64,000 bases of DNA from a virus, in the IMG/VR virus record IMGVR_UViG_3300042876_000344. The stretch is one strand, 5' to 3'. A program made the translations under genes and the position numbers. The notes under the pieces are model-generated. The model ran no database searches, was not told where the DNA came from, and worked only from the letters and a program-made list of their open reading frames with translations. Positions 2,871-20,073 of this stretch are shown piece by piece (the first letter of the stretch is position 1; the number at the start of each line of letters is the position of its first letter).

Positions 2871-2876
2871 AAAAGC

Positions 2877-3155
2877 ATGACAAGTACAAGGATCGACGCC
2901 AAAACGATGAAAGGTGAGATCCGAGTTCGCCGTGGCTACGACATTCGGGTTGACTCGAAGACTGGACAGAAGACGGAGGTTTCCCCCGTCGTTTGTATGT
3001 GCTGCCAGAAGGACATCTTTCACGTCTCTGAACTTATCAATGGCGACATCGTTGGACCGGGATGCGACGGACTCATTGCCTGTCCGGTGTATCGGATTGG
3101 CCGCACGCTCAACAGGAAGCAAGCCGCATACGCTTCATCAAGGGGGTTGCTATGA
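2877..3155 (+). CDS. hypothetical protein
   Basis: ATG 2877 directly after the promoter, inside track ORF 2787..3155. First gene of a visibly more A/T-rich module. Confidence 0.55.
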   Translation: MTSTRIDAKTMKGEIRVRRGYDIRVDSKTGQKTEVSPVVCMCCQKDIFHVSELINGDIVGPGCDGLIACPVYRIGRTLNRKQAAYASSRGLL

Positions 3156-3319
3156 CCGAGCAGGAAGTCGAGCTGATTATAGACAAATTGCGGGAAGCCG
3201 AGAGCATGGTGATCTCGGCCCTCTTGGACGACAGGAAGCGGGATAGCTGGGGGGCGTTGGACGAGTGTAAAGTTCTGATTTGGAAGGCAATGGACCAAGC
3301 GGGAGACGCAGCACGATGA
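3152..3319 (+). CDS. hypothetical small protein
   Basis: ATG 3152 overlaps upstream stop (ATGA). MTEQEVELIIDKLREAES... Confidence 0.55.
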   Translation: MTEQEVELIIDKLREAESMVISALLDDRKRDSWGALDECKVLIWKAMDQAGDAAR

Positions 3320-3495
3320 GTTGGGAAGCGTGGGGCAGCGGCCCGGAACCATTCGACGTTGACAAACTGTATCGGGAAGGGTGGGATTGCGATGAGAGTT
3401 GTGTGGTGTGGTTCAAGGAGGAGGAGCCGGAGAAAGTCTACACACTGGATGAGGCAATCCAAATCTATGAGGATTGGCTATCAAATGAGGAGTAA
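3316..3495 (+). CDS. hypothetical small acidic protein
   Basis: ATG 3316 overlaps upstream stop (ATGA). MSWEAWGSGPEPFDVDKLYREGW... Confidence 0.55.
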   Translation: MSWEAWGSGPEPFDVDKLYREGWDCDESCVVWFKEEEPEKVYTLDEAIQIYEDWLSNEE

Positions 3496-3499
3496 CTCT

Positions 3500-3838
3500 A
3501 TGACGAGAGTCGTCGAGGTAAAGCCGGGTATTGAGATGCGGATTCGTGGCCTCCGATGGGATGACGGCTGGAGGTACGGCTCCCCGGTGGCACTCATAGA
3601 CCCCGTTCTGAAAGTGTACGAGGACGGACGGAGCCTAGAAAGGGCAATCGAAGACCTGTGTATTGATGCGTGTGTTTGCGGCGTACTGAAAGATGAGGAA
3701 GCATGGCGATGGGAAGCGGCTCCGGGTGGGTCCTTGGCCTACCTCAGACGCAAGTTTTACCGCACGCATGTCCAGCGAGTTGATTGTAAGGTGCGGTTCA
3801 TTGTTGACGACGACGGAGAGTTGTGGTGGGAGGCGTAA
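3500..3838 (+). CDS. hypothetical protein
   Basis: ATG 3500 with GAGGAG 7 nt upstream, inside track ORF 3359..3838. Confidence 0.6.
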   Translation: MTRVVEVKPGIEMRIRGLRWDDGWRYGSPVALIDPVLKVYEDGRSLERAIEDLCIDACVCGVLKDEEAWRWEAAPGGSLAYLRRKFYRTHVQRVDCKVRFIVDDDGELWWEA

Positions 3839-4242
3839 TGGGTATGTTTGCGCCGGGTAGAAGCGAGACGGTGAACTACCACTATTGGCCGATCCGATTC
3901 GGCTGGTCTAGTGGGCCATACCAGCAAACACTTTGGCGGTGGGTTAGAAGGGCTATCGACAGCAGGCGGTGGACCCTCGATTACCCACACCGATACACTT
4001 GCCTGTCGTCGCTGGAAATTCACAGGGCTGCTGCCCGTCGAATGTGGCACGGTTGGCCCATCGGGGGCAGTTCAAGGGAGTATGGCTGGACGCTTCACCT
4101 TGGACGGTTTAAGGTGTACTTCGGAGATCCGGACACCACACGGCAATCCGAAATCAGTACTAATGGTCCATCCACACCGCAATCCGAAGTTGGTAAACTG
4201 GCTTCATGCCAAACAGACTCGGACTCAAGGACTGGAAAGTGA
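3838..4242 (+). CDS. hypothetical Trp-rich protein, 3' end probably altered by the IS insertion
   Basis: ATG 3838 overlaps upstream TAA (TAATG). The frame runs into the ISL3 left end and 36 nt into the transposase gene. An alternative overlapping frame (track ORF 3911..4471) cannot be excluded. Confidence 0.45.
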   Translation: MGMFAPGRSETVNYHYWPIRFGWSSGPYQQTLWRWVRRAIDSRRWTLDYPHRYTCLSSLEIHRAAARRMWHGWPIGGSSREYGWTLHLGRFKVYFGDPDTTRQSEISTNGPSTPQSEVGKLASCQTDSDSRTGK

Positions 4243-5549
4243 CGAACGTCGAAGAAAGCACAACAGACATGAGGGTGACGGCAGAGTACACGCCGCCACC
4301 CACGGCCTGCCCTCGCTGTGGGTTGGCCGACCAGCCGCTCTACAAGCACGATGTCCGCACTCAGGAGTTCATGGATACCCCGCTCCACGGAAAGCGGGTC
4401 CATTTGATCGTGAGACGCCAGCGGTACGTCTGCCAAGGGTGCGAGAAAACCTTCCAGCAGATCCTTCCTGATATGGAGGAAGACCGCACGATGACGAAGC
4501 GACTGGTGTCGTACATCAAGCGTCTATCGCTGGAAAAGAAGTTCACTGAGATTGCTGATGAGGTTGGAGTCAACGAGAAGACCGTCCGCAACCTATTCAA
4601 AGAGCACGTCGAAAGGCTCGATTCCGAGCGGGTCATCACGGCCCCGGAGTGGCTTGGCGTGGATGAGCTTCACATATTGGGTGACTTTCGGGCGATGCTC
4701 ACAGCCCCCGGCGAGAAGAAGATTCTTGACCTTCTGGAGAAACGAGACAAGGCTACCGTTCTCAAGTGGATGCTGGCCCTGCCCAACCGGAAGAACGTCA
4801 AGGTGGTGACGATGGACATGCACCGCCCGTACCGGGAAGCTGCGTTGGCAGCGTTTCCGAATGCCGCCTGTGTGGTGGATGTATTCCACGTCGTCAGGAT
4901 GGCAAACAAAGCGGCGGATTCGCTCCGCATCGCACTCAAGGATGAACTGGACCCGAAGGTACGCCGGAAGATCAAGCGTGATCGGTGGATCATTCAGGCA
5001 CGTCGCAGGAACCTGAAGGCTGGCGACGTAATCATGCTGCATTCGTGGGATCGGGTAGTTCCGATGCTCTCGGCAGCATACCGGGCAAAGGAAGACTTCT
5101 ACGACATCTACGAAAAGGCCAAGGACCGGGCGGAAGCTCTTGAACTGTGGGACTTGTGGCTGGAGATGTTGGAGCCGGAACTGAAGAAGCCCTTCAGTGA
5201 ACTGATCCGGGCTGTGACGAACTGGAAGCCCGAAATCTTCAACTTCTTCGACTACCGGGGCAAGACCAACGCCTACACGGAAGCGATCAATAGCGTCATT
5301 CGAGCCATCAACCGTGCTGGTCGTGGCTATAGCCTCGACGCCATCAGAGCCAAGGTGTTGTACGGCGGCAAGAAGCGGCAGACGGACACCGAGTACCAGA
5401 AGGTCGCCTTGTCGATGAAGATCAAGCGGCCCAAGGTGGACACAACTTATCGGGTGGACCCGGAGACAGTGCTCCATGTGGACAAACCACCCAAACCAAA
5501 GAAGAAGACAAGAAAGTATGAGAAATGAATGTCAACACTACAATCCGAA
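4144..5549 (+). mobile_element. ISL3-family insertion sequence (boundaries approximate)
   Basis: Intact ISL3 transposase ORF. The 9-nt CAATCCGAA occurs at 4144-4152, 4180-4188 and 5541-5549 and is a candidate target-site duplication. Clean terminal inverted repeats could not be found by eye. Confidence 0.6.
4206..5528 (+). CDS. ISL3-family DDE transposase
   Basis: N-terminal zf-ISL3 pattern CPRCG..(n)..RRQRYVCQGCEKTF. LGVDELHILG, VTMDMHRPY...VVDVFHVV and KTNAYTEAINSVIRAINRAGRGY match the ISL3 DDE core. 440 aa with no frameshift. Confidence 0.93.
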   Translation: MPNRLGLKDWKVTNVEESTTDMRVTAEYTPPPTACPRCGLADQPLYKHDVRTQEFMDTPLHGKRVHLIVRRQRYVCQGCEKTFQQILPDMEEDRTMTKRLVSYIKRLSLEKKFTEIADEVGVNEKTVRNLFKEHVERLDSERVITAPEWLGVDELHILGDFRAMLTAPGEKKILDLLEKRDKATVLKWMLALPNRKNVKVVTMDMHRPYREAALAAFPNAACVVDVFHVVRMANKAADSLRIALKDELDPKVRRKIKRDRWIIQARRRNLKAGDVIMLHSWDRVVPMLSAAYRAKEDFYDIYEKAKDRAEALELWDLWLEMLEPELKKPFSELIRAVTNWKPEIFNFFDYRGKTNAYTEAINSVIRAINRAGRGYSLDAIRAKVLYGGKKRQTDTEYQKVALSMKIKRPKVDTTYRVDPETVLHVDKPPKPKKKTRKYEK

Positions 5550-5634
5550 TACCCAGGATGAGGTCTTTGGCTGGCATATCTCATCCGCCACAGTTGGAAA
5601 AGAGTTGAGACGTCTTGCCGCCCAGTACGAGGCC

Positions 5635-7812: not shown

Positions 7813-8148
7813 CTACCTGACCACGATACTTAGGCCGCTTGGGGCGTCGGTAGGGACCGGTGCGCCGGCCTGATTACTGGGACCTGACTCCACGCCGCCG
7901 AAGATCGCAGTCACCTGATAACAGTAGGCGCCCGGCTGGACAGTGGTATCGACGTAGGTTTTCACTGCCACCGCGGAAGCAATTTTGGTGAACGTCGGGG
8001 ATGCGCTACAGAGCCCTGAAGCCCGGTAGACGCTGTAAGTGGTGCCGGCGGGGTTGGAGGTATCCGTCCAGGCCAGTGTCGCGCTGTGGGTGGATGTCTG
8101 CGCCAGGGCGGCGACAGCCAAAAACAAAAGGATGATGATGTGTTTCAT
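7813..8148 (-). CDS. secreted single fibronectin-type-III-like domain protein
   Basis: ATG 8148 gives MKHIIILLFLAVAALAQ signal peptide. ATLAWTD..YSVYR...YCYQVTA is an Fn3-like strand pattern. Confidence 0.65.
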   Translation of the reverse strand: MKHIIILLFLAVAALAQTSTHSATLAWTDTSNPAGTTYSVYRASGLCSASPTFTKIASAVAVKTYVDTTVQPGAYCYQVTAIFGGVESGPSNQAGAPVPTDAPSGLSIVVR

Positions 8149-8150
8149 GG

Positions 8151-8447
8151 TTATTCCCAATCAGGCAAGTCCACCGTTTGCCCTGCTAATTCGTGGTGGC
8201 AGTCCGACAGGAACTGGATTCGCCCATCAGTGACAAATGAGTGGCAAACGAAATCCGTCCCCTGGTTGCACAGAAGAGACGGGGTGAACGTCGGACGATC
8301 CATTGAGCCATTCCAGGCCCAGCCGCGCTCTTGGCATTCAATCTCAAAAGGGTGCGCATGCCCGCACCCAGGGCAATGGAAGAGATACATCTTCCCACCG
8401 CGCGATCCTCGGTTCGAATCACCTAAATAGTGGAGTTTGTTTGCCAT
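8151..8447 (-). CDS. DUF6527-like Zn-binding phage protein
   Basis: MYLFHCPGCGHAHPF...WAWNGSMDRPTFTPSLL...CHSFVTDGRIQFLSDCHHELAGQTVDLPDW matches my memory of the DUF6527 pattern. No signal peptide. Confidence 0.5.
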   Translation of the reverse strand: MANKLHYLGDSNRGSRGGKMYLFHCPGCGHAHPFEIECQERGWAWNGSMDRPTFTPSLLCNQGTDFVCHSFVTDGRIQFLSDCHHELAGQTVDLPDWE

Positions 8448-11400
8448 CTAGTTCACCGTCGCTGTCCCGGACACGCGTGCCGTGCCACACGTGACTCGGT
8501 AGTACACAGTGCCGGCGCTGAGGCCGCTGGCTGAGTAGCTGTGTGCTCGCCCCGCGGCCGAGGAGTTGGGATCCGAAGCATCGTCAGAGGATGCCGGCGC
8601 GCCGCTGCCAACCAGGACTTTGCAGGCCGCCGGGCTCGGCCCGATCCAACTCAACACTAGAGTTCCCGTTCCAGGGATAGCTCGGAGGTCGGTGATGCGA
8701 TCCCGCGGCACGAGGGCATACTCAGGCGCCGTCATGCGCAGATTCAGCCCGCTCAAACTGCCCATTACTCGCTCCCAGGCCCTGCGCCCTGTCCCGGTAC
8801 TGGTCGAGTATTCCTCCGCCAGCGCGACCGATGACGCGTAGAGATTCGGGTACGAGTGGCCGTAGCCGACGCCGTTCCACTGGACCCGATCCCACGTCCA
8901 TGTTGCGCCCGCCGAATGGCTCGCCGCGGTTGTCCCGTACATTCCGCGCCCGCCAGTGCAGACCGTGAGCGTGGACTGCCCGGCGATGGGTGAGTCAACG
9001 GCGGATGAGCAGATATTGATCCACTCGCTTTCTATCCGCACAATGGTCGGCTCAAACCAGTCAATGCCGATATTGGCGTTGGAGGTACGCTTGTCAATCA
9101 CGATGGACGTGGCGCTGTTCGTGATGGTATTCACCAGCGCCGCCGTCCGCGGGAACGTAGAGGCCTGCTCTGCCCACGTCTGCGGAATGACATTGGTTGC
9201 CCCAACAACAAACGGAGCGACGTACCAGTCATAGAAATGTGCGTTTGAGTCGGGGTGAATCGCGGAATTGATGAGGTATTTCGAGTATTCCTCGTGCGTG
9301 TAGCGGAACAACGGTTGCCCAGTGGTGGCGTGCAGCCATGCACCGGTCTGCGCCGCCCATCCGATTATGTGGGCGATGTAGTTCAGCATGAAACTCTGTG
9401 TGTAGTTGCCCTCGCTCCAGACCGGCAAGCGCAATGGATTGGACATTCCCTTCATTTGCAGGTGCCTTCCGGAGCACCAGGGCGATACGACGGACGTGTA
9501 GTGGTAGGAGATGACTACCGTGCTGCCGGCGCCCACTGCCGCCGCTCCGTCGTCCTGGAATACGGTGAATCCACCAGGGTAGTAATACCAGTCCCTGCCG
9601 GTATCCACGCCGCGCACGCCAATCGTCTTTGCCGCTCCGTCAACCGTGATGCCCGTCACCGAATAAAGCGGATGGGCGACACCCAGCACTTTGGTCGTGC
9701 CATTCAGTTTGTAGACAGACCAGCCATTCCAATCATTGGTGCTGCTGGAGGTGTGCGTGACACTATTGCTTCCAAGATCACTCCCACGGCAGAAATTGGT
9801 GGCGGTGGTCACCCCGGCATTCCCGCCGCTGATGCCATACGCGCCCTCCCACATTTCATCGTTTTTCTCTAAAATCCGCCTGAAGTACTCGCGTTCCGGC
9901 CACGCGGAAGGAGCGAGCAGCGCACCGTAGGCGATCTCCCGTAGACTCCATGCCGAACTGCGCCAGTTCCCCCAATCCTGCTTCAATCCCCAGTCGCCGC
10001 ATCGCGTGTGGTAGTAGTAGCAGGCGTAATTTGTGCCGCTGGCCATCCACCCAGACAGTGCCATCTGCCCTCGCAAATAGGCGTAGCGCCCGGTCAGGAT
10101 GTACGGCATCGCGAATGCGGCGGGCATGTGACTGGTATCGAACACCCAGCCCTTCGTGTAGGCAGCGTCAGCGCCTCTGGCCCCGTCACAAGGGGTAGCC
10201 GTGCAGACCGGGACGACGGCGTCTGCTCCGTCGCTACCCTCGCCGCTCTGCGCCGCCTTCCAGTCAGGCCGCGCCGAAATACTGGCGATGCGCCCGAATG
10301 CGGGCGTCGTCTGCGCGGTGTCGAAGTAATACTTCTGGCCGTCAGCGGGAGAATCGCGCACCGTCGAATTGTCGCTCTCCCATTCCCAGACGGGCAGCGT
10401 CATCGCGGCGTCTGCGTTGCCCACTAGGAGCTTATCGAAGATCTCTTTTCGCTGCGCGACGGTGAATTGCGAAGTGTCGCCCATGGCAAAAATCTGTGTC
10501 ACATACCAGCGTGGGTGAACACCGATGTCCCCCCTTCCGCCCGTGCCGGGAATGTACTGCTGCCAATTCCCGCAGCGCCCCGCGCCTGGATCGCAATCCT
10601 GGATGTCGGCCGCCCCTTTGTTTGCGTCGAATTGCGCAACGTCTGTAGCGCCACTCCACTGCTGTGAGTAGCTATAGGGCGGCAGAATGCGAGAATGCAC
10701 CATGTAGCGGAGGTTCCAGTCCGTCTGGATTGCAGCGGGCGCGCTGCCATCCCAGAAGTAGCGCGAGAAAGCAGACCGCGCAGGCAGGTCAAACGCGGTC
10801 TTGCTGTACACAGATGCCCCGCTGGTTTTCGTCACCGACAAATCGAACACCTGCCGCTGAAGCCGCGTCGTGGCGCCGTTGATGGCAAGGACCTCCACCT
10901 CCACGCCAGCCCAGCCCGCGTAGAACGAGGCAACGAAAACAGGATGGACGCTCTTGTAGGTGTCGCTCGACGGCGCCTGCCAACTCCCGCCGCTGTACTG
11001 CCAACCGAAATCATAGAGCGGGTTCGGGCGGGTAACGTCCTCGAACACCGCCTGCGTCACGAAAGGCCCGCGCAGCCTATACGTCCACGCACCCGCCGCC
11101 AGCATTGTGCGCGCATTTGCAGAATAGGTTATGAAATCAGCCGTGCCCGATAGCACCGCGCCCCAGGCCGCTCCGTTAAAATTGAGCATCTGCTGCTGAG
11201 TCAGTGCGGCGGCCGCGCATGTCGCCAGATTCCCAAGATGACAGGGGTTGCTATCGGGAACGAAATCCACCACTGCTGAACCGTTGGCCGTGATCGACAC
11301 GGGGAGGCTGACGAACGCAGCCATCACCGACAGGTCTGGCCAAACGCTCTCAACGTCCACCTGCCAATTGGCGGGGACGCTACCACCCACGCGCGGCTTG

Positions 11401-11555
11401 GGGTAGTAGCCTGATGGGAACTCCCCTTGCGCGAAGTATCTATGGATCGTGCGCGGTTGGCTCGTCTGGGTGCTACCAGAGGCGTCGTAGAGACGGACGC
11501 CATTGTTGAACTGCGCAATCAATGGAAATGCCAGCAAAATCAACAGATATTTCAT
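8448..11555 (-). CDS. large secreted fibre/glycan-degrading-like protein with C-terminal Fn3-like domain
   Basis: ATG 11555 overlaps upstream stop (ATGA). MKYLLILLAFPLIAQ signal peptide. 1035 aa. C-terminus (ITDLRAIPGTGTLVLSWIGPS...YYRVTCG) is Fn3-like. Confidence 0.6.
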   Translation of the reverse strand: MKYLLILLAFPLIAQFNNGVRLYDASGSTQTSQPRTIHRYFAQGEFPSGYYPKPRVGGSVPANWQVDVESVWPDLSVMAAFVSLPVSITANGSAVVDFVPDSNPCHLGNLATCAAAALTQQQMLNFNGAAWGAVLSGTADFITYSANARTMLAAGAWTYRLRGPFVTQAVFEDVTRPNPLYDFGWQYSGGSWQAPSSDTYKSVHPVFVASFYAGWAGVEVEVLAINGATTRLQRQVFDLSVTKTSGASVYSKTAFDLPARSAFSRYFWDGSAPAAIQTDWNLRYMVHSRILPPYSYSQQWSGATDVAQFDANKGAADIQDCDPGAGRCGNWQQYIPGTGGRGDIGVHPRWYVTQIFAMGDTSQFTVAQRKEIFDKLLVGNADAAMTLPVWEWESDNSTVRDSPADGQKYYFDTAQTTPAFGRIASISARPDWKAAQSGEGSDGADAVVPVCTATPCDGARGADAAYTKGWVFDTSHMPAAFAMPYILTGRYAYLRGQMALSGWMASGTNYACYYYHTRCGDWGLKQDWGNWRSSAWSLREIAYGALLAPSAWPEREYFRRILEKNDEMWEGAYGISGGNAGVTTATNFCRGSDLGSNSVTHTSSSTNDWNGWSVYKLNGTTKVLGVAHPLYSVTGITVDGAAKTIGVRGVDTGRDWYYYPGGFTVFQDDGAAAVGAGSTVVISYHYTSVVSPWCSGRHLQMKGMSNPLRLPVWSEGNYTQSFMLNYIAHIIGWAAQTGAWLHATTGQPLFRYTHEEYSKYLINSAIHPDSNAHFYDWYVAPFVVGATNVIPQTWAEQASTFPRTAALVNTITNSATSIVIDKRTSNANIGIDWFEPTIVRIESEWINICSSAVDSPIAGQSTLTVCTGGRGMYGTTAASHSAGATWTWDRVQWNGVGYGHSYPNLYASSVALAEEYSTSTGTGRRAWERVMGSLSGLNLRMTAPEYALVPRDRITDLRAIPGTGTLVLSWIGPSPAACKVLVGSGAPASSDDASDPNSSAAGRAHSYSASGLSAGTVYYRVTCGTARVSGTATVN

Positions 11556-12514
11556 CGGTTCAGCCCCGTCATTTTGAATTTCGCCCAATCTACATACAAA
11601 TTCTTATCCGTTGTGTTGCTAGTGCCGATGATGGCGGCTGGCCCGACCGCGTTGCCCGCTGTAGCAACCAACTGCGTGTTGCTGTCGCAACCGCTGGCGC
11701 AGATGGTTTTGCTGGTGCCGTCAATCGTGAAGGTGAGTTTGTTGCCGGTGGCTTCGTGCTTGATTGTGAACCGATGCCACGAGAGATCCTGCCCGACGTT
11801 CATCGTCACCGTCGCGCCTCCGGTGTCGCCGCAGTTGTTTTGAGAACCACACCACTGCGCAACCCATGAGCCGGTGGTGTTTTTTGTGTTGTCTGCGTAT
11901 GCCGCGTCCTCGTCGTATCGGAGCCAGATGTGAGCCTCTGTGCCATCTCCAGCCACTGTATTTGCACCAGACATACCCAACCGCGCCCGTGCTCCACTGG
12001 TACTCAGTGCGAGCCGCGCGATGTAGGATACGGTCCAATCTTTACCGGTCAAATCCGCGTTGGGGATTTGGTTTCCTGAGTAATTGTTCTTCAGCGACAG
12101 CACCGCTGCGCCGCCAATTGTGGTGTTTGGATAAAGCAACAAAACGCCTGAATGGTTGGAGGGTGGTGACCCGAGCCAGATGAATCCACCAGAGCCAGCA
12201 GTCTCGATCCTCCATCCATGTGTGCCGATGATTCCGCTGTTGTTGTAGCCGGCGATGAAATCCTCAACGATGCAGATCTGCGTAGGGTCGGACTGATCGC
12301 AGTCCACAGAGGACCCGCCACCCGCCCCAATCTCCGTCTCCGTGCCTGCGGAGGTGAGCGAGTAGAGTTTGTTGTCCGATTTGAAATACAGTTTGTTCGA
12401 GCCGCTGGCCGGGTTTGTAGGCGTAGCGATCTGCAGCATCACCAGGCCGCCGGAGATGATACCAGCCAGCGCCAGAGTGGCAATGCAAAACAAAATTGCG
12501 AGTGTTCGTTTCAT
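11552..12514 (-). CDS. fibre-like protein with hydrophobic N-terminus and lectin/glucanase-like body
   Basis: AGGAGA SD. MKRTLAILFCIATLALAG. NKLYFKSDNKLYSLTSAGTETEI is a motif common at fibre N-termini. Confidence 0.55.
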   Translation of the reverse strand: MKRTLAILFCIATLALAGIISGGLVMLQIATPTNPASGSNKLYFKSDNKLYSLTSAGTETEIGAGGGSSVDCDQSDPTQICIVEDFIAGYNNSGIIGTHGWRIETAGSGGFIWLGSPPSNHSGVLLLYPNTTIGGAAVLSLKNNYSGNQIPNADLTGKDWTVSYIARLALSTSGARARLGMSGANTVAGDGTEAHIWLRYDEDAAYADNTKNTTGSWVAQWCGSQNNCGDTGGATVTMNVGQDLSWHRFTIKHEATGNKLTFTIDGTSKTICASGCDSNTQLVATAGNAVGPAAIIGTSNTTDKNLYVDWAKFKMTGLNR

Positions 12515-12521
12515 AATTCTC

Positions 12522-13937
12522 CTATCGAACTGTTGCGTTTCCGCTGACGCGGCCAGCGCCGCTGAATGTGGCGGGGGTGGTGTACTGGTAGGCCCCGATG
12601 TCCCAGGGGCCGATGGGCCGAATTACCCCGGATATATCAGTGGTAAACGCGGAGGATAAATCTACGCCTTGGCCACGGGCATATCCGTTAGACTTAAGCC
12701 TGAAATCGTAGGACGCCGGATCAACGAAAGCGGTTGCCGACCCGTTGACTTGCCCGGTTTCAGCCGAAGGGACGATGCCCGTATTGCCGAAATACCCGTT
12801 ATTTGAAAGCGTAGTACCCACCCCGCCGTTGACCGCCGTAAAATGGCCACTCTCGAAGAGGTTATTTTCCACAATAACGTTGGTAGACCCTGGGGCATCC
12901 ATACGTATTTGAGCCAGCACGCCAGGAACAGCGATGCTCCCATAGCCATAAATGGTATTGTTCGCTATTAAAGCATTGGTCATCACCCCACTTAACCCAC
13001 CGCCCGAGCCATCCCGGCTCCAGATGACTCCTGGGCTAATGACGTCGTAGGTTGCAAGGTCCGTGATGTAGAAGATATTGTTGTAAATCAAAGTATTGGA
13101 CCACGCACCAGTAGCGCCCAAAAATGAAATGGCTCCGGAGCCTTTGTTGTTTCTGAAGATGCTGTTGCGAATGATCGTATAATTGGACCCGGTTCCATAG
13201 TACATAATGCCTTGTCCGTGCGCCCCGCTTGTGGTCCCGCCAGTTTCGGAGATAACGGAGTTTTCGATCAATGCTCCGTAGTCTGAATAACTTGATCCGT
13301 TGGCGTCGTCCACCGATAGACCATTTTCACTGGTATCATGTATCCAGCAGTTTGCCAAACGCCATCTGGATGTTCCTGAGAGATGAACGCCTCGCGAATA
13401 ACATGCGTAGTTCCCTGAGTCGTTGCAGGTGTCCATGTATCCAGGCCCCTGAATTTCTAGGTGGGATATATCCAGCGAAGCATTTCCCAAAAAACTCGCA
13501 TCTATGACGATGACTCTGGCGGATACCGTGGGCTGGTCTGATCGGTAAATCTTGATTCCGTGTCCGCTCATACCCGAACCCGTCACCCCGTCAATGACAA
13601 GATAGGACGTGCTGAGATTTAGAGTCCCATCGATGATCGCCTGCCCTGTCGCATAGGCATCATTCCATCCGGTCTCTGCGCCATGCGCGCCCGCCGTCGC
13701 CTTTTTGATAGTTATCGGCGTCGCCCCACTTGGAGACGTGGATATAGTGACCGTGCCCGCGTATGTCCCGCTGGCGATGTAATAGGTGTCGCCGCGTACC
13801 CATGTCCTGCCAGCAATCGCGGTCCATGCGTTTGTCCAGTCCGATCCGTTGTTTGCGCCCGTCGCTCCCGCGCGGATGTAATGGTCTGCCCCAAGCGCAA
13901 ACGAGGATAGGTAGATCAACGCAAGTGCAGGTCTCAT
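12522..13937 (-). CDS. secreted right-handed beta-helix (pectate-lyase-fold) depolymerase-like protein
   Basis: ATG 13937 overlaps upstream stop (ATGA). MRPALALIYLSSFALGA. Repeated NS[IV]..N / NN.I.. turns (IENSVISE, IIRNSIFRNN, LIYNNIFY, IANNTIYG, IVENNLFE). Confidence 0.65.
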   Translation of the reverse strand: MRPALALIYLSSFALGADHYIRAGATGANNGSDWTNAWTAIAGRTWVRGDTYYIASGTYAGTVTISTSPSGATPITIKKATAGAHGAETGWNDAYATGQAIIDGTLNLSTSYLVIDGVTGSGMSGHGIKIYRSDQPTVSARVIVIDASFLGNASLDISHLEIQGPGYMDTCNDSGNYACYSRGVHLSGTSRWRLANCWIHDTSENGLSVDDANGSSYSDYGALIENSVISETGGTTSGAHGQGIMYYGTGSNYTIIRNSIFRNNKGSGAISFLGATGAWSNTLIYNNIFYITDLATYDVISPGVIWSRDGSGGGLSGVMTNALIANNTIYGYGSIAVPGVLAQIRMDAPGSTNVIVENNLFESGHFTAVNGGVGTTLSNNGYFGNTGIVPSAETGQVNGSATAFVDPASYDFRLKSNGYARGQGVDLSSAFTTDISGVIRPIGPWDIGAYQYTTPATFSGAGRVSGNATVR

Positions 13938-14611
13938 TTGATCCCCGCGAGCACCGCCGACCAAGGCGATGGCACCGTTGCCGTTTTGTCTCCGCTAGCG
14001 CCGCTGGACACGGGCGCGGTGTACCCGCAGGCAATCCCCTCGTTGGCCCCGCCGTTGATTGTTCCACAGGATGTCCATCCAGCAGGAATACCAACGGCCC
14101 CGCTTCCATCGGTACTGCCAAAATAGAGCAATATATCTGCTGTTCCGGTGGTTGTGATCGACGTAGCGGTTGCCGTTGTTCCGGTCCCCTTGTTTACAGT
14201 CCCGCAGACATCGGGGGTGGAGGCCGCGCCACTCATCTGCACGATCACGCCAGAGGAGTACTGTGCCCCACCGAACGTAAACGTGTAATTCCCGCCTTCC
14301 GATGAAGCGATCTTGTAGTATGTTGCTACAGATTGCTGGCTGGCTGCTTTCGCGGAACAAACCGACCAGCCAGCGGGGGGCGTCACCGATGTCGCACTTG
14401 AGTTCATCGCTATCCCAGCAAAAAGCATATTCCCGTCTACAATGGAACCCGGTGGGGTTAGAACCAAGGTTGTCGAATTGGCGGAACCAACCGGGCTGGA
14501 GCTGTTGACGAATGCGGGGCCGCCCGCAGCCGCCCGCCGCCCCACCCGCCGCACCGTCATATCCTGCCCTAGTAGGGTGGGGATAATCGCCAGAAAAATC
14601 AGGAACCTCAC
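13934..14611 (-). CDS. secreted hypothetical protein
   Basis: GTG 14611. MRFLIFLAIIPTLLGQ signal-like N-terminus. Confidence 0.55.
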   Translation of the reverse strand: MRFLIFLAIIPTLLGQDMTVRRVGRRAAAGGPAFVNSSSPVGSANSTTLVLTPPGSIVDGNMLFAGIAMNSSATSVTPPAGWSVCSAKAASQQSVATYYKIASSEGGNYTFTFGGAQYSSGVIVQMSGAASTPDVCGTVNKGTGTTATATSITTTGTADILLYFGSTDGSGAVGIPAGWTSCGTINGGANEGIACGYTAPVSSGASGDKTATVPSPWSAVLAGIK

Positions 14612-15969
14612 ATTGCCCTCCTCGTTGTAACCTCGACGCCGACCAACGAAACAACGCCAGTGATCGTGTCCGAGGCATGGCCCCTATCTCTCATGACCTT
14701 GAGGTGCATCAGTTCGCCTGCCGCGCATCCGGTCATTGTGATTCCCGTGATGCTGGCCGTGTTGAGTTGCAACGTCGTGCCCTTGGCTGCGTCGGTAACT
14801 GTATTCGCCGTGTTGTACGCTGCGTCGTTGACCTCGGCGTCGGCGCGGCAAGATGTTGCAACCTGCCAAACTACGTCTCCAGTGGTGGCCGCCGCTTGCC
14901 ACAGGAATTTCACGTCAACGTTGCCGGCCCAGTCGTCGGGCAGCATGATGATCTGCTGGAGCGAGTAGGTATTGTCGCTGTCCGGGAAATCAGCAGTCCC
15001 CCTCATCATGGTCGTTTCAGTGGACCCCGCCGCGCACGTTGCTGTAGGGGCGTTGGATGCCAGCGTATCCCACATCAGCGTGCCCGTCGTGCCAGCGCAG
15101 CCAGCGGCGGGTAGCCAGATCTTGGAACTGAGCGTGATGACGTTCCCAGTGCCCTCGGCGTCGATGGTCTTGTTGGTGAACGTATCGCTGGTTGAGGTTG
15201 TCACGGCAGCCGTGCAGGACTCAGCCGCGCCGCTCGCATCCACGCCCAACGGGAACGAGCCAGCCGAGCAGTTGGAGCCGTTGGCAGCGAGCGCCGTGGC
15301 TGTCGCCGCGTTGCCCGTCGTGCTCTGATTCAGCGTCGGCACATCCGCAGCCTGAATTGCCGCCGTGGCGGGAATGCCGGTGCTCGGGATGTGGGTGACA
15401 AACTGATTCGCCGTGCGAGTGGCACTCGGAACGACGGTGGTGGATTTCACGCCATTTTCGTTGATCGCATAGAGCGTGAGGCTCGTACTGTCGAACCACA
15501 TGCCCATCGTGCTCGCGGCAGGCGTACTCAGCGCCGCGCCCGTCGTGCCCGTGGCGGCAAACTGGCCAGTGCCGGAGGTGGAGAGGACTTTCTGCCAGCC
15601 GGAAGCCGAATCGCAGAACCAGAGGACTTTTGGCGTGGTATCGGTGCGCAACTGCCACTGCTGGCCAGCGGTGCAGGCGCCGGAGGGGTCTGCGGTCACA
15701 GAGGTGACGGCCATGTTGCCGCTACCTGCCGAAGCCTCATCCGCCCAGGTGTTCGTGCCGGTACACAACCGCCCCTTGTGAGTCGTGGTGTTGTAGTAGC
15801 GCATCCCTTCCGTGCAGGTCCCAGGATCGGAGGACTTCTCCGGAACAGGCCGAGAACTGAGAGCCGCGCTCATGTCGATCTTCGTGGCCGCATTCGCGGT
15901 GTGGCCGTAGGTTTCAGTCTGCGCCCATGCCGCGGACGCCAGAACCAGGAGAGAAATCAGGTATCTCAT
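14608..15969 (-). CDS. secreted fibre-like protein
   Basis: MRYLISLLVLASAAWAQ. Two copies of a C..G..(8-12)..C....W motif (CTEGMRYYNTTTHKGRLCTGTNTW; CTAGQQWQLRTDTTPKVLWFCDSASGW). Confidence 0.6.
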   Translation of the reverse strand: MRYLISLLVLASAAWAQTETYGHTANAATKIDMSAALSSRPVPEKSSDPGTCTEGMRYYNTTTHKGRLCTGTNTWADEASAGSGNMAVTSVTADPSGACTAGQQWQLRTDTTPKVLWFCDSASGWQKVLSTSGTGQFAATGTTGAALSTPAASTMGMWFDSTSLTLYAINENGVKSTTVVPSATRTANQFVTHIPSTGIPATAAIQAADVPTLNQSTTGNAATATALAANGSNCSAGSFPLGVDASGAAESCTAAVTTSTSDTFTNKTIDAEGTGNVITLSSKIWLPAAGCAGTTGTLMWDTLASNAPTATCAAGSTETTMMRGTADFPDSDNTYSLQQIIMLPDDWAGNVDVKFLWQAAATTGDVVWQVATSCRADAEVNDAAYNTANTVTDAAKGTTLQLNTASITGITMTGCAAGELMHLKVMRDRGHASDTITGVVSLVGVEVTTRRAM

Positions 15970-17207
15970 TAGAATGACCTCACAATCGTGGCTCGGAACG
16001 TTTGGGCGGAAATCGTAGCCGTTCCCGCGATGCGGCAGACCCGCAACGTGACGGTGTTCGCACTGCTGACGTAGGCAGACCAGAGCAGGCCAGCACCTAG
16101 CCCGGTGGGTGCGCCGATCATCACCTCATCGCCGGTTGCCGCGCCGGTGACGGTGATGCTGCCTTCCTCGCAGGAGTTGGTGAATGTGGACATGCTGAGG
16201 GAGGCTGTTCCAGTGATCCGCGTTGGCACGATGGCCGGGTCCATCAGGATCAGCGAGCCACTCGGAGGCCCGCCGACGTAGCAGGAGCCCGTGTACGCGC
16301 TGCCCGCCGCCGGGTTGATCGTCACATCGCCGCTGCTGTTCGTGGTGTAGGCCACGCCGCTCGCCCAGACGCCATCTGACGTTCGGCGGCAGCCTAGGAA
16401 TACCGGAGTCGTCCCTAGTCCGTGCGTGGCCGCTGTGACCGTCCTGGACGTCTCGCCCGCAAATGCGATCAGGTAGGGCGAGGCGGAGCCCGTGCCCTCA
16501 CCCGCAGGTCCAGTCGCTCCGGTAGCACCCGTGGCACCGGTCGCCCCGGCAACTCCCTGGATGCCCTGAGAGCCTGTCGCGCCAGTGGCGCCGGTTGCGC
16601 CTGTCGGGCCAGTCGGCCCCGTGGGCCCAGCCGTTCCAGAGCCGCCGCTGCCGCCGCCGCCCGTGGTGGTCCAGCAGGTGCCCGTCTCGGCAGGCGAGAA
16701 TCCCACCGTAACCGAGTTCAGACCGAACACGGGAGCAATCGGCGTGATCTCCGTGTCGTCGCTGGCCCTTCGGCATGTGATCGTGACGGCCTTGGTATTC
16801 CAGTTGTGGGTGACGGTCGCACTGGTAGCGGAGGAGAATGACTGTTCAGCCACTGAGCCAACCGGTCCAGTTGGTCCTGTCGGCCCCGATGGCCCCGTGC
16901 TCCCGGTCGCTCCACTGGGCCCCGTCGGGCCCGTTGGCCCTGCCGGTCCAGTTGCACCCGCGGCTCCGGCTGTTCCTGTTGGTCCTGTCGGACCCGTTGG
17001 ACCGATGCTGCCGGCGCCGGCGGCGACCCAGGTGTCGGGCGGGACGGCGCAGTTATAGAGGCCGGCGCTGGCTCCGGTTTTCTGGAAGAGGTCGCCAAGG
17101 TTGCACTTCGCCGGGAGCGTTCCCCCTTGGGGGGTCACCCGGCGCGCGCCGCCAAATTGGGCCATCAGCGGCAAGGATAAAACCAAAACCGCCAGAACGT
17201 GTTTCAT
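15969..17207 (-). CDS. secreted collagen-like triple-helix-repeat fibre protein
   Basis: MKHVLAVLVLSLPLMAQ. Two G-X-Y tracts (GPTGPTGPTGTAGAAGATGPAGPTGPTGPSG..., about 16857-17012, and GPTGPTGPTGATGATGATGSQG..., about 16494-16643). Confidence 0.75.
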   Translation of the reverse strand: MKHVLAVLVLSLPLMAQFGGARRVTPQGGTLPAKCNLGDLFQKTGASAGLYNCAVPPDTWVAAGAGSIGPTGPTGPTGTAGAAGATGPAGPTGPTGPSGATGSTGPSGPTGPTGPVGSVAEQSFSSATSATVTHNWNTKAVTITCRRASDDTEITPIAPVFGLNSVTVGFSPAETGTCWTTTGGGGSGGSGTAGPTGPTGPTGATGATGATGSQGIQGVAGATGATGATGATGPAGEGTGSASPYLIAFAGETSRTVTAATHGLGTTPVFLGCRRTSDGVWASGVAYTTNSSGDVTINPAAGSAYTGSCYVGGPPSGSLILMDPAIVPTRITGTASLSMSTFTNSCEEGSITVTGAATGDEVMIGAPTGLGAGLLWSAYVSSANTVTLRVCRIAGTATISAQTFRATIVRSF

Positions 17208-17512
17208 GATGTTCTCCTCGCTGCCGTCTGCTGAACGTGGCCGTCCAGCTTCTTCTCAATTTCGTCGACTCTCTCTGCGATGTTCTCGATCTTGTCGCCC
17301 TGGGCGTCCAACTGGGCGCCGACAGTGGCCGCTCTCATGAATGAGCCGTTTACCCATTCGCGCGTTTCCCTCTGCTGCAGGGCCATCGTGTCCTTGATTG
17401 CGAGTGAGAATTTGGCAAACTCGGCGCGGACTACATACATGACGATCCCTCCGAGAACGCCTGTCCCTGTCACGGTAGCGCCAATGGCTTCAGCAGTCAT
17501 AGAAAAATCCAT
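17204..17512 (-). CDS. membrane-anchored coiled-coil protein (i-spanin-like or holin-associated)
   Basis: N-terminal helix AIGATVTGTGVLGGIVMYVV followed by a coiled coil (DKIENIAERVDEIEKKL). Confidence 0.45.
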   Translation of the reverse strand: MDFSMTAEAIGATVTGTGVLGGIVMYVVRAEFAKFSLAIKDTMALQQRETREWVNGSFMRAATVGAQLDAQGDKIENIAERVDEIEKKLDGHVQQTAARRTS

Positions 17513-17561
17513 TCGTGTGGCTCCAAGTTAATATTTGGGCGGATGACTGCCGCCCGTTATG

Positions 17562-17855
17562 TCACTGCCGCGGCTCAGTCGTAGTCGTCGTTGACGTTGG
17601 CGTGGTGACCGTCGTTGTGGTGACTGCGCCGTCGCCCCATTCGAGGCGGGGCAGTGGAGACTGCTTGACGTAGGTAGCGAAGTGGTAGAGGCTGGACAAC
17701 GCCAGCATCTGCAGCATGTGCGGCAACCCCTTCGGGTCGAGGTTGAATTCGCCCGGGGCGATGAGCCATGCGGAGAGCGTGGTGGCGATACCTCCGATAA
17801 GGGCGCCGACCAACCCATAAATCCAGCCAATCAGCTTTTTCTGGTTGTTTGTCAT
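17562..17855 (-). CDS. putative holin (two hydrophobic helices, Thr-rich tail)
   Basis: LIGWIYGLVGALIGGIATTLSAWLIA and LQMLALSSLYHFATYV. Lies close to the endolysin. Confidence 0.45.
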   Translation of the reverse strand: MTNNQKKLIGWIYGLVGALIGGIATTLSAWLIAPGEFNLDPKGLPHMLQMLALSSLYHFATYVKQSPLPRLEWGDGAVTTTTVTTPTSTTTTTEPRQ

Positions 17856-17864
17856 CGTGTCCTT

Positions 17865-18110
17865 TCAGGTGGGCGGCGCCGTTGCTCTCGCCGCATTGAT
17901 CTCCGCGCGGATCTGCGCGCTGATTGCCAGGGCCTCGTCCGACGCCTTGATGGCGTTGTCGTCAATCTCCAGGATGGCAATCGGGAAATCCGGAGCTTGC
18001 TTCTTGATGAGGTTGTAGATCGTGCGCGCGGCCGTCGCTTCAATGGAAATCATCGGGATGCTCTGCCCGATCTGAAACGTCATCTGGAGGATTTTGTCGA
18101 TGGTGCTCAT
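17865..18110 (-). CDS. hypothetical 81-aa protein
   Basis: ATG 18110 overlaps upstream stop (ATGA). MSTIDKILQMTFQIGQSIPMISIEATAARTIYNLIKK... It is the tail of track ORF 17865..18494. Confidence 0.5.
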   Translation of the reverse strand: MSTIDKILQMTFQIGQSIPMISIEATAARTIYNLIKKQAPDFPIAILEIDDNAIKASDEALAISAQIRAEINAARATAPPT

Positions 18111-18517
18111 CGTGCCTCCAGGATCATGGTCAGCGTTGAGGTCACGCCCGCGACCAGCCCCGCAACGGTGGGACTGCTGTACTCGGGGGGGAGACCCAAC
18201 GATTTGATAAGCCCTTGGACCGCGGCGATTTTCGTAGTCGGGTCGCCGGAGCGTTGCAGGATGGCGATTGCGGCCTTCTGGGCGGCCGCCACGCGGTCGG
18301 TCCAGTCCAGGATGCTCAGCACCATGGCATCGCTGATCTGCCCGTCCTTGCGGGCCTGGGCCACGCGCTTGACCGCCGCCAGGTTCACCTCGGCCAGAAT
18401 CCCGATTCCCTGGTGGACTCGGAACTCGACGGATTGCGGCGGTGCAGGGGTGCCGGGCGCGGGCTTGTTCCCGCACCCGACAATGAAGAGGCACAGCGCG
18501 ACGAGGAGGGTTCGCAT
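18107..18517 (-). CDS. lipoprotein (lipobox IVGC)
   Basis: MRTLLVALCLFIVGCGNKPAPG is a classic signal II/lipobox. Confidence 0.65.
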   Translation of the reverse strand: MRTLLVALCLFIVGCGNKPAPGTPAPPQSVEFRVHQGIGILAEVNLAAVKRVAQARKDGQISDAMVLSILDWTDRVAAAQKAAIAILQRSGDPTTKIAAVQGLIKSLGLPPEYSSPTVAGLVAGVTSTLTMILEAR

Positions 18518-19197
18518 TACTTCACCACCCTCCAGCCCCAGGCTTCCTTCAGGTGCTTGACTCCCTTGGAGTCGGTGAAGATATCGCCCACGGCATAGCC
18601 GTCGGGCTGGGTCCTCAGTTCATGCTGCGCGGCGCTGATCCCGGAAACGCGCCCCAAGGGGCCTTCGCCCTCGGGGGTGGGCGCCTGCGTCGACACGGGG
18701 GCGGGGGGTGTGGGCGGGATCTCTGCGGCCGGGACCGGACCGGGGGCGGGGCGGGGAACTTCCAGTTCGTCTATCAGGTCCAGGTCGGACTCTACCGATA
18801 CGCCGGCGCCGGCGTGGTAGTAGCGGTCGACGATGCCGGCAGCGTTCAATCGGCGCCCGTTGGGCAGGACCACGGAATAGGTCAGCTTGTCGGCGTAGTA
18901 GATTCCACCTTCGATCCCACGGACAGCCTCAAGGGTGGCGCCGGGAACGAACAATTGGACCAAGCGGAGAGCTTCCTGCGCGCCGGAGGGGCTCGCGCTC
19001 TGTTTCGGGTTGACGTAATGGTTCACTTGCCCGTTCGTCGTGTTGTACACCGCGATGGCGTCAAACAACGCGTAATAGTCTGGGACGAAGGTGTAATCCG
19101 GCTCCGTTCCTTTCGGATGGAAATACGGGTTGTGTGCGGCTGGGCCAGCGTATCCCCAGTCATTGGGGAGGGGTGAGTTTCTGAGGGCGATATTCAT
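18517..19197 (-). CDS. hypothetical protein with Pro-rich linker
   Basis: Track ORF, coupled to the flanking genes by 1-4 nt overlaps. Confidence 0.55.
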   Translation of the reverse strand: MNIALRNSPLPNDWGYAGPAAHNPYFHPKGTEPDYTFVPDYYALFDAIAVYNTTNGQVNHYVNPKQSASPSGAQEALRLVQLFVPGATLEAVRGIEGGIYYADKLTYSVVLPNGRRLNAAGIVDRYYHAGAGVSVESDLDLIDELEVPRPAPGPVPAAEIPPTPPAPVSTQAPTPEGEGPLGRVSGISAAQHELRTQPDGYAVGDIFTDSKGVKHLKEAWGWRVVK

Positions 19198-19739
19198 TCA
19201 GGCAATCCTTTCGACTGGGCCCATGCGCGATAATCCGCATCTCTGGGCCACACGAGAGACGGACATTCGGTTGCCCGCACCTGACGGTGCAGGAGGATTT
19301 TCGTAATCGGGTGCCGCGCCATGATCCAGCGGATGACGGCAATCAGGGTTTCATCCTGTTCTTGGGTGAGCCCTTCCTTCTCGCCCTGGGGCAATGGGCG
19401 ATAGGCTTCAATTTCAATCCCGATGGAGGAGTGGTTGATGTCGCGGTTGCCAGCATGCCAGGCAGCATCCTTTTCGTCGACGCATTGGATAACGGCGCCG
19501 CCCCTGGTGATAACGTAGTGCGCGCTGACCTGTGATTTCGCATCCTGGAACCACTTCACCGCGCCCGCTGCCTTGCCAGACGTGTTGTGCAGCACGATGG
19601 CAGAGATCTCTTTTTCGCGCGGCGACCGATTGGGCGACCGCGCGAATGAGATCGCAAAGTGCAGCGCATTATCCAAGGTACGGCCTCGAAACGACGAAGA
19701 AACTCCGGTCGGCCGTCTGGACAACCGGCGACGTCCCAT
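19194..19739 (-). CDS. N-acetylmuramoyl-L-alanine amidase (Amidase_2/PGRP-type) endolysin
   Basis: AIVLHNTSG..VSAHYVITRGGAVIQCVDEKDAAWHAG..NHSSIGIEIE...RHPITKILLHRQVRATECP is the T7-lysozyme/PGRP amidase pattern. ATG 19739, with an alternative TTG 19687 (GAGG 7 nt upstream). Confidence 0.85.
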   Translation of the reverse strand: MGRRRLSRRPTGVSSSFRGRTLDNALHFAISFARSPNRSPREKEISAIVLHNTSGKAAGAVKWFQDAKSQVSAHYVITRGGAVIQCVDEKDAAWHAGNRDINHSSIGIEIEAYRPLPQGEKEGLTQEQDETLIAVIRWIMARHPITKILLHRQVRATECPSLVWPRDADYRAWAQSKGLPE

Positions 19740-20073
19740 CGTGCGAGATGAGTTGGATGAACCGGCCGGCGGCGAAATCGCCTCCAACCAGCGTCATGAA
19801 GCTGCTCGCCGGGCCGGCAGTGTACTCGACAGGAGCCCCGCCGACATCGTAGACGGGCGCCCATCCAGCGTCGTTGTAGGCTGGCACGTCGTTGGGATAG
19901 GCGAGCCCGCGGCCGTGGTGGACGTTGAGCCTGATCTTGGTCGCTCCCGCATCCCAGGCGGCGGGCATGAAGATGCCGACCAGCGCCTGCCCGTGGAGGG
20001 GGATCGGCTGGCTCACAGACCGGCCAGAAACGAAGCTGGCCGGAATCTCCTGCTGTTGGTAAAACTCGCTCAT
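19669..20073 (-). CDS. hypothetical virion-module protein
   Basis: AAGGAGA SD 8 nt before ATG 20073. Track ORF. Confidence 0.6.
   Translation of the reverse strand: MSEFYQQQEIPASFVSGRSVSQPIPLHGQALVGIFMPAAWDAGATKIRLNVHHGRGLAYPNDVPAYNDAGWAPVYDVGGAPVEYTAGPASSFMTLVGGDFAAGRFIQLISHDGTSPVVQTADRSFFVVSRPYLG

Follow-up and report, generated by a model that had tools for sequence, protein, structure and literature searches.

Exported glycanases that are encoded in exopolysaccharide (EPS) loci, such as the PslG, ExoK and AlgL-type enzymes, have phage-depolymerase-like or carbohydrate-active enzyme (CAZyme) folds. In Pantoea stewartii, for instance, the exported and tailspike-like enzyme WceF is encoded in the EPS cluster (PMC7949094). 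Phage depolymerases and tailspikes, virion-borne or soluble, display beta-helix/fibre architectures that target capsule or EPS, and soluble forms are known (PMC6966330, PMC5380687). The known depolymerases reach their folded state in the cytoplasm and leave the cell upon lysis, and no Sec signal has been described for any of them; in this respect they differ from the proteins analyzed here, which are encoded by nine fibre-, lectin- or enzyme-like genes in two blocks of a phage late operon and which all start with a predicted export signal. The genes are located on a 64,000-nucleotide stretch of the virus record IMGVR_UViG_3300042876_000344 (this whole stretch is referred to as the window), which constitutes nearly all of a ~66-kb metagenomic phage contig with a G+C content of 62% (Logan SRR24010765). 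By comparing the genes, their N-termini and their genome context with those of related phages and bacterial chromosomes, we arrived at an explanation that we hold with confidence and doubt in about equal measure, namely, that the nine genes specify a host-derived, Sec-exported late secretome that binds and cuts the exopolysaccharide of the host to aid the escape of the virions.

Other described systems resemble this cassette in part. The mycobacteriophage protein LysB is a lysis-cassette accessory for the layer outside the peptidoglycan, and Llp of phage T5 is a receptor-blocking protein. Both share with the cassette the link to late expression or lysis and the relation to an extra-envelope layer or to protection from debris; the biochemistry is unrelated and the likeness would be a functional one. 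Streptococcal prophages carry DNases and superantigens as secreted cargo downstream of the lysis module, with promoters of their own, and these proteins act on the animal host. The cargo and the cassette are alike in their position after the lysis genes, their Sec signals and their mosaic, exchangeable content, whereas only the cassette is translationally coupled to late genes and encodes proteins that resemble binders and cleavers of glycans. Phages of Porphyromonas gingivalis encode proteins of unknown function with signal peptidase I (SPI)/Q-rule signals, for which an action at the cell surface was proposed (PMC10367356). These proteins and those of the cassette have host-style Sec/SPI signals in common that would expose an N-terminal Gln, but the Porphyromonas phage genes are scattered singly and belong to Bacteroidota, whereas the cassette belongs to Acidobacteriota, is coupled to lysis genes and has a demonstrable counterpart in a host operon. 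In the searched literature we found no report of tail fibres with Sec signals, nor of a block of Sec-signal fibre-, lectin- or enzyme-like phage genes, its linkage to a lysis module, or the host operon described below.

The nine genes and one interposed open reading frame (ORF) are as follows (lengths in amino acids, aa; a slash marks the predicted cleavage site):

15969-17207, minus strand: g412 (412 aa), signal (MKHVLAVLVLSLPLMA/Q), Cys-bridged post-signal module, two collagen-repeat blocks and a conserved C-terminal domain.
14608-15969, minus strand: g453 (453 aa), signal ending in AAWA/Q, post-signal Cys module, fibre region with the motif TDTFTNKTI; 10 Cys in close pairs.
13934-14611, minus strand: g225 (225 aa, GTG start), signal ending in TLLG/Q, beta-rich, 4 Cys; phrog_6813 (1.1e-8).
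12522-13937, minus strand: g471 (471 aa), signal ending in FALGA/D, right-handed beta-helix (pectate-lyase fold); local G+C 54%.
11552-12514, minus strand: g320 (320 aa), 24-residue hydrophobic N-terminal helix, Cys-less variant of the post-signal module, concanavalin-like (L-type) lectin domain.
8448-11555, minus strand: g1035 (1035 aa), signal ending in PLIA/Q, multidomain CAZyme-like protein; 14 Cys in pairs.
8151-8447, minus strand: DUF6527 ORF (98 aa) between g1035 and g111, no signal; PF20137 (1.9e-13).
7813-8148, minus strand: g111 (111 aa), signal ending in AALA/Q, 2 Cys; Fn3-like by pattern only.
42516-44450, minus strand: g644 (644 aa), signal ending in GLAA/Q, repeat-rich, fibre-like, 6 Cys in pairs; between the large terminase gene (TerL) and the presumed portal gene.
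40738-42516, minus strand: g592 (592 aa), signal ending in LLPA/QQ, rhamnogalacturonase-type beta-helix, 10 Cys; local G+C 55%.

Most of the labels that a first-pass annotation of the window had given to these proteins were borne out. The collagen repeats of g412, which has 8 Cys in its mature part, are recognized by Pfam (Collagen, E-value 1.6e-12), as is the beta-helix of g471 (Beta_helix, 2.5e-10, next to DUF5123 and a weak choice-of-anchor Q match), for which a pectate-lyase fold had been proposed. The lectin-like character of g320 is supported at the level of the predicted fold: the AlphaFold2 model (predicted local distance difference test, pLDDT, 76) consists of an N-terminal helix at residues 2-21 followed by a concanavalin-like jelly roll, and a Foldseek search related it to the lectin modules of SO2946, Aap and SraP and to legume lectins (E-values 2e-9 to 1e-7, template modelling (TM) scores of 0.5-0.64 on the target). 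The Fn3 label of g111, on the other hand, had no Pfam match behind it and reflects a sequence pattern only. In the case of g592 Pfam reports PF12708 (1.7e-8), and in the case of g644 there are weak PHROG matches to tail and tail-fibre families. No sequence-family match was obtained for g1035 in Pfam, NCBIfam or a profile search of the PDB. Its AlphaFold2 model (pLDDT 89.5, predicted TM score 0.91, residues 1-14 disordered) depicts a monomeric protein in which beta-sandwiches and a helical core are combined with an Ig/Fn3-like domain at the C-terminus; among PDB structures it comes closest to a PL26 rhamnogalacturonan lyase (E-value 1e-4, TM score only 0.26-0.29) and the matches in a viral structure library are uncharacterized proteins. 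A role of g1035 as a polysaccharide enzyme is thus a lead provided by the model, not a finding.

The signals were called with a simple rule-based scorer in combination with indirect evidence. All nine N-termini quoted in the first-pass annotation were recovered exactly as written. The seven genes of the distal block had been described as consecutive and signal-bearing; all seven carry a signal, but they are not consecutive, as the signal-less DUF6527 ORF intervenes. Likewise, the proposed build of a basic residue and a hydrophobic core of 10-15 residues holds for eight of the nine proteins. A Lys or Arg is present at position 2-3 in all nine and the predicted residue at -1 is invariably Ala or Gly; Gln is found at +1 in seven, and at -3 the predicted residue is Ala in three and Leu, which is tolerated though non-canonical, in six. 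The uncharged hydrophobic core measures 11-15 residues in eight proteins and ~24 in g320, which because of this length looks more like an uncleaved signal anchor and, taken together with the modelled helix, probably is one. The scorer found a signal in 9/9 of these genes and in 4 of the ~55 others (Fisher p = 2.6e-8), so that signal-type N-termini set the nine apart from most other genes; the four additional positives are one lipoprotein, one holin-like membrane protein and two weak cases. All nine starts follow a Shine-Dalgarno-like ribosome-binding site (of the GAGG, GGAG or GGGG type), and the independent Logan gene calls have the same starts and lengths as the ORFs we chose. Inspection of the C-termini by eye revealed no sorting signals of the PEP-CTERM or type IX secretion system (T9SS) kind. 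The possibility of an internal start just after the signal, which would yield a cytoplasmic isoform, was rejected: an in-frame ATG is present at that position in a related prophage (L038, see below), yet there is no consistent pattern among the nine genes.

Cysteines are even-numbered in eight of the nine mature proteins (2, 14, 6, 4, 10, 8, 10 and 6; g471 has 3) and most of them occur in close pairs, e.g. 105/113, 321/328, 451/456, 52/69 and 131/150. Six signal-less ORFs of the late operon (g321, g584, g425, g1987, g134 and g226) have 0-1 Cys each. Even and paired cysteines are the pattern expected for proteins that fold in an oxidising compartment, and this indirect evidence suggests that the signals are indeed used for export.

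The style of the signals, with Ala or Gly before and Gln after the cleavage site, matches that of the exported proteins encoded in the flanks of the Bryobacteraceae loci described below, which often end likewise, and by a crude pattern Gln is present at +1 in at least 87 of 149 representatives of the post-signal module family (P0111-P0259). The Q-rule was described as specific to Bacteroidetes (PMC5837995). The full-length homologues and their contexts belong to Acidobacteriota (Bryobacteraceae, Candidatus Solibacter) and not to Bacteroidota. As a separate observation, Gln at +1 appears to be frequent in the exported proteins of Acidobacteriota, considering the seven phage proteins and several proteins in the chromosomal loci L034 and L042-L044.

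The genome context of the homologues provides the main clue to function. For g1035 there are 94 homologues, with Acidobacteriota/Bryobacteraceae as the only taxa named by the source. Five chromosomal loci (L034, L036, L042, L043 and L044, on contigs of 190-441 kb) carry the cassette with no phage gene within 10 kb, in the order fibre-like gene (435-539 aa), g320-like gene (332-344 aa) and ~1030-aa gene (965 aa in L044). L034, L036, L042 and L043 adjoin EPS genes, i.e. genes for glycosyltransferases, a Polysacc_synt flippase, a pyruvyl transferase, a deacetylase or a UDP-glucose dehydrogenase, and L044 has a five-gene variant with only Wzy_C nearby; flanking genes are common to the members of two pairs among the five loci. 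Both partner genes also lie directly upstream of full-length homologues in nine GTDB species-representative genomes (Bryobacteraceae, Candidatus Solibacter and unclassified Acidobacteriota; two overlap with the five loci), whereby the comparison concerned the partner genes and the EPS context derives only from the annotated flanks of the five loci. Across loci, the partner upstream of g1035 is always g320. The phage copies of g1035 make up one subclade of a neighbour-joining tree, nested inside the host family, and the chromosomal copy P0005 is interleaved with them. The comparison with host chromosomal counterparts that had been suggested earlier thus shows the phage core to match a conserved three-gene host operon, and the earlier option that the phage had captured host-type surface proteins is supported for this core. 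Because the operon stands beside EPS genes, the sugar coat of the cell, outside the cytoplasm, is the most likely target of the proteins. From the taxonomy of the homologues and the exchange of genes we infer that the phage, which is uncultured and represented by metagenome contigs alone, infects soil Acidobacteria.

The host homologues of g1035 hold the kind of position that is typical of EPS-locus glycanases. They differ from these in that the family lacks a sequence match in Pfam, NCBIfam or the PDB and has only a weak lyase-like fold match, in that a lectin with a probable membrane anchor and a fibre protein accompany it in every case, and in that copies circulate in phages, the window copy itself being part of a phage late operon. 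Beside the host cassette, a second, divergent paralogue was observed in L034 (13175-15559, minus strand) and L042 (13196-15508, minus strand); it is 770-794 aa long, has a signal peptide and matches the first 580 residues of g1035 at 29% identity. The N-terminal half of g1035 alone also occurs in genomes of Blastocatellia, Planctomycetota and Alphaproteobacteria.

Four other phage loci also contain a g320-like gene with a g1035-like gene behind it, in each case beside lysis genes. With the window included, the carriers are five genomes of three types: L041 and L045 are relatives of the window phage, L040 is a 94-kb podovirus with an SU10-type capsid and 53% G+C, and L038 is a siphovirus prophage with a tape measure, an M15 endolysin and an integrase. 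Signals are present on the cassette genes with readable N-termini, namely five in L041, five in L040, three in L045 and two in L038 (in L045 the contig ends within the g1035 homologue, and in L038 the call of the collagen-like ORF is incomplete). In the g1035 homologue of L038 the signal becomes apparent with an upstream start codon that had escaped the gene caller, and all inspected g1035 homologues with a complete 5' end keep the signal, at 35-64% identity. The composition of the cassette is mosaic: g225 and g471 are absent from L041, and the g1035 copy of L041 is 82.5% identical to that of L040 and only 62% identical to that of the window. The DUF6527 ORF has a homologue in L041 that follows the 1034-aa gene, g111 is 54-59% identical to signal-bearing 122-aa proteins of L041 and L040, g592 is 50% identical over 575 aa to a signal-bearing 885-aa cassette protein of L040, and the C-terminal domain of g412 is common to L041, L040, L038 and the host cassette fibres. 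The N-terminal 81 aa of g453 are 74% identical to a 384-aa protein of L041, the remainder being replaced. Over g471/g320 (12000-14000) and g592 (40000-42000) the G+C content drops to ~54-55% against 62% for the genome, which is consistent with recent acquisition from a source of lower G+C, such as the phage L040. Searches for further relatives returned little: tblastn with g453, g592, g644 and g1035 had no match in 50,697 deposited phage genomes, a scan of genome contigs with the presumed capsid protein recovered no relative, a scan of viral contigs with g102 (the last lysis gene) had no match, and a scan of metagenomes recovered only three relatives, one of them useful (L045).

Phage and host proteins also share a module of ~40 residues directly after the signal (KP.R…LP..C..G..FF.T….LY.C….W). 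It is common to g412 (~20-65), g453 (~35-80), the 885-aa protein of L040 and the host cassette proteins (L034, L036 and L042-L044); g320 has a Cys-less variant, and in P0099, a member of its family, the Cys form occupies that position. No Pfam model covers the module. The 109-aa N-terminal module of g453 had one match in a word-indexed search, which was replaced by an exhaustive search of representatives; this second search found the module in 201 representative clusters, either N-terminally after the signal or in up to 8-11 tandem copies. Because it is common to host proteins and to phages with different tails, the module is unlikely to be a tail-specific attachment domain.

The premise of the first-pass annotation, namely that fibres normally have no export signal, could be checked with the motif TDTFTNKTI of g453, which is present in 31 IMG/VR loci. 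Leaving L003 apart, the N-terminus is hydrophilic and without a signal in all loci with a 5'-complete fibre ORF (28/28), which implies that signals are not a general fibre trait. The exception, L003 (a contig with 59% G+C), has four fibre-like ORFs with signals ending in AQ and also encodes a signal-less gpJ-type tail protein (Pfam Phage-tail_3). The same controls bear on the thought that the hydrophobic N-termini are due to chance, to an artefact of gene calling or to a docking motif unrelated to export. Although the Leu at -3 in 6/9 would fit with this, none of the 28 control fibres has such an N-terminus, the starts are backed by ribosome-binding sites and independent gene calls, the parity and pairing of the cysteines fit export, and the homologues, those encoded by the host included, differ in sequence while keeping the physico-chemical pattern of a signal; we therefore regard this explanation as scarcely credible.

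A more serious matter is whether the proteins could be true receptor-binding fibres or spikes that are exported to acquire disulfides in the periplasm and that join the tails after holin lesions or lysis. Various observations speak for this and weigh against a secretome that is not part of the virion. In the window phage and in L040 every fibre-like gene has a signal, and a fibre or tailspike candidate that lacks one was not recognized in either phage, which is weak evidence because most structural ORFs match nothing. The T7-like gene order places tail fibres where the cassette is found, and in L040 the cassette occupies the slot of the SU10 tail and tail-fibre genes. Close relatives have conserved N-termini and swapped C-termini, as receptor-binding proteins do; g412 matches tail-fibre PHROGs through its collagen repeats, and g453 shares its motif with bona fide fibre-type ORFs. 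The paired cysteines argue for oxidative folding under this explanation as well. To these points must be added, as further weaknesses of the secretome, the low TM scores of the structural match between g1035 and the lyase, and the fact that we identified no route across the outer membrane. The case for receptor-binding proteins is, however, countered by the homologous cassettes in host chromosomes without phage genes nearby, by the sharing of the N-terminal module between host proteins and different tail types, and by L038 and L003, which have large signal-less proteins by their tail genes in addition to signal-bearing fibre-like genes (in L038 a 1780-aa protein directly after the tape measure, presumably a tail protein, without family match). 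Moreover, g1035 models as a monomeric enzyme-like protein and not as a trimeric spike, and the searched literature holds no precedent. On balance we consider it unlikely, though deserving of attention, that the proteins are virion fibres of this kind. There is also only a small chance that phages of Bryobacteraceae, or perhaps of Acidobacteriota more broadly, route receptor-binding fibres and depolymerases through Sec, fold them oxidatively in the periplasm and attach them to particles built in the cytoplasm only after holin lesions have merged the compartments or the cell has lysed; such a two-compartment route of assembly has yet to be described for tailed phages.

The arrangement of the genes bears on the time at which they would be expressed. 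The late operon of the window is long and runs on the minus strand, and the following genes surround the two blocks or are otherwise relevant here:

45011-46996, minus strand, late operon: TerL (large terminase).
39893-40828, plus strand: HNH/NUMOD3 homing endonuclease, between g592 and the presumed portal region, beside the g644/g592 pair.
20070-26033, minus strand: polyvalent protein (1987 aa) with a MuF-like region, a 2'-5' RNA ligase/LigT domain and LPD38.
17204-19676, minus strand: lysis module, adjoining the cassette upstream and translationally coupled to it.
19194-19676, minus strand, lysis module: Amidase_2 endolysin.
Between endolysin and lipoprotein, minus strand, lysis module: 226-aa ORF.
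18107-18517, minus strand, lysis module: lipoprotein with LVGC lipobox.
Between lipoprotein and holin-like gene, minus strand, lysis module: 81-aa ORF.
17562-17855, minus strand, lysis module: holin-like 97-aa protein.
17204-17512, minus strand, lysis module: g102 (102 aa, transmembrane segment and coiled coil), the last gene of the module.
60719-61579, plus strand: tyrosine integrase.

The spanin and holin roles within the lysis module are putative assignments made from sequence features only, and a primase/VapE protein, a helicase and an ISL3 transposase are also encoded on the plus strand. The two genes g644 and g592 had been placed between TerL and portal; the identity of TerL was confirmed, whereas "portal", like "capsid", is a positional guess because the core structural ORFs match no family. 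That is, the ORFs between the terminase and the polyvalent protein matched no PHROG, Pfam or PDB sequence family, relaxed PHROG and Pfam thresholds included, and PDB sequence searches with the structural ORFs of 638, 584 and 750 aa gave no match either.

From g102 to g111 all intergenic gaps are 7 nucleotides or less and most starts overlap the preceding stop, the start codon of g412 overlapping the stop of g102 (ATGA). The genes g644 and g592 are packed equally tightly behind the gene after TerL, g644 overlapping the upstream 187-aa gene that follows TerL. The tight packing of both blocks suggests that they are transcribed late, together with the packaging and lysis genes. A scan for promoters yielded fewer sigma-70-like sites than were present in shuffled sequence, with a method that is not validated for Acidobacteriota, and promoters and terminators together showed no excess over shuffles. 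These data speak against a role in lysogenic conversion or superinfection exclusion, in which the proteins would be expressed from the prophage and would remodel or mask surface glycans, thereby blocking other phages or altering the biofilm: the starts overlap or abut upstream late genes, which would leave no intergenic space for a dedicated promoter, and the paucity of sigma-70-like sites, with the said reservation, points the same way. Conversion would nevertheless agree with the tyrosine integrase, with the cassette of L038, which comes after the lysis genes close to the end of the prophage, where morons are classically located, with the host homologues being part of EPS loci, and with the proposal that the Porphyromonas phage SPI/Q-rule proteins modify the cell surface (PMC10367356). 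We find it improbable all the same. The earlier option of a phage-encoded secretome is therefore retained in part: a function related to exopolysaccharide is best supported, and lysogenic conversion is less likely than late lytic expression because the genes overlap or abut late and lysis genes.

The folds of the proteins allow for yet another reading, namely that they represent auxiliary metabolic genes, i.e. genes for secreted enzymes that would nourish the lysogen from plant polymers resembling pectin or rhamnogalacturonan. The pectate-lyase-fold, rhamnogalacturonase-type and weak PL26-like signals would suit such a role, and ~5% of soil prophage CAZymes were reported to have signal peptides (PMC13507307). 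The arrangement in a late operon with lysis genes does not suit it, the host homologues are found in EPS biosynthesis loci and not in polysaccharide-utilisation loci, and fibre, collagen and lectin components are unexpected for the acquisition of nutrients, which makes this reading very improbable.

The explanation that we prefer, i.e. the late secretome, takes as its starting point what was observed directly: N-termini of the signal type, cysteines in pairs, the layout of the operon, homologous and syntenic loci in the host, the recurrence in three phage types and the exchange among phages. Actual export and cleavage, enzyme activity on EPS, timing and a location outside the virion are what we infer from these. 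It is further favoured by the glycan-related folds within the set (an L-type lectin, two beta-helices and a lyase-like multidomain protein). The host Sec system would export the nine proteins late in infection, eight of them as cleavable SPI substrates, while g320 would stay behind as a membrane-anchored lectin; the earlier option of uncleaved anchors would accordingly apply to g320 and its family, with their 24-residue helix, and not to the other proteins. Once exported, the proteins would acquire disulfide bonds as they fold, be it in the periplasm or farther out. The core of fibre domain, g320 lectin and g1035 would derive from, and still exchange with, the three-gene operon of Bryobacteraceae/Solibacter, which in the chromosome would be responsible for the normal processing of the same polymer; the phage would have enlarged this core with extra beta-helix and fibre modules and would transcribe it together with its lysis genes. 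In the late phase the set would bind and cut the exopolysaccharide or surface glycans of the host from outside the cytoplasm, and this cutting would let the progeny leave the matrix and avoid being trapped on debris. The cassette would thus be an extra-envelope extension of the lysis cassette and its products would not be virion parts.

Some observations concern other elements of the window. The HNH/NUMOD3 gene marks a mobile insertion slot next to the low-G+C gene g592. The 1987-aa polyvalent protein has a weak match to the anti-CBASS protein Acb1 (E-value 0.004) and a single Cys in its 1987 residues. The ISL3 transposase (4206-5528, plus strand) lies in a 2.8-kb segment (2764-5555) that is 99.8% identical at the nucleotide level to positions 14156-16947 of L041, the rest of the window being 65-82% identical to that genome, which points to an element that was recently active or recently shared between the two phage genomes. 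A 12-bp tandem repeat (GGCTCCGGCTAC, 34 copies) at 62838-63263 (plus strand) constitutes a 141-aa ORF of nearly all Gly/Ser/Tyr/Asp repeats with a third-position G+C of 0.99. Finally, a 139-aa ORF of the early region (47557-47976, plus strand) has a signal-like N-terminus ending in GQ and several CxxC-type Cys pairs; it may encode a tenth exported protein, perhaps with an exclusion function.

If the proteins indeed form a late secretome, phages of slime-forming soil Acidobacteria would possess a "fourth lysis function", i.e. host-derived exported lectins, fibres and enzymes directed at exopolysaccharide. The three-gene operon of Bryobacteraceae/Solibacter, together with the widespread Cys-bridged post-signal module, would then represent a new exported protein family, and its members would be candidate enzymes for acidobacterial EPS, a poorly characterized polymer. 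If, instead, the proteins are receptor-binding proteins, the textbook view that tailed phages, their receptor-binding proteins included, are assembled wholly in the cytoplasm would have to change. The presence of Gln after the signal-peptidase site in Acidobacteriota questions the claimed specificity of the Q-rule for Bacteroidetes. Under either reading there is a warning for annotation, in that "tail fibre-like" genes in Acidobacteriota may encode exported proteins and predictions of host range that are based on them may be misleading.

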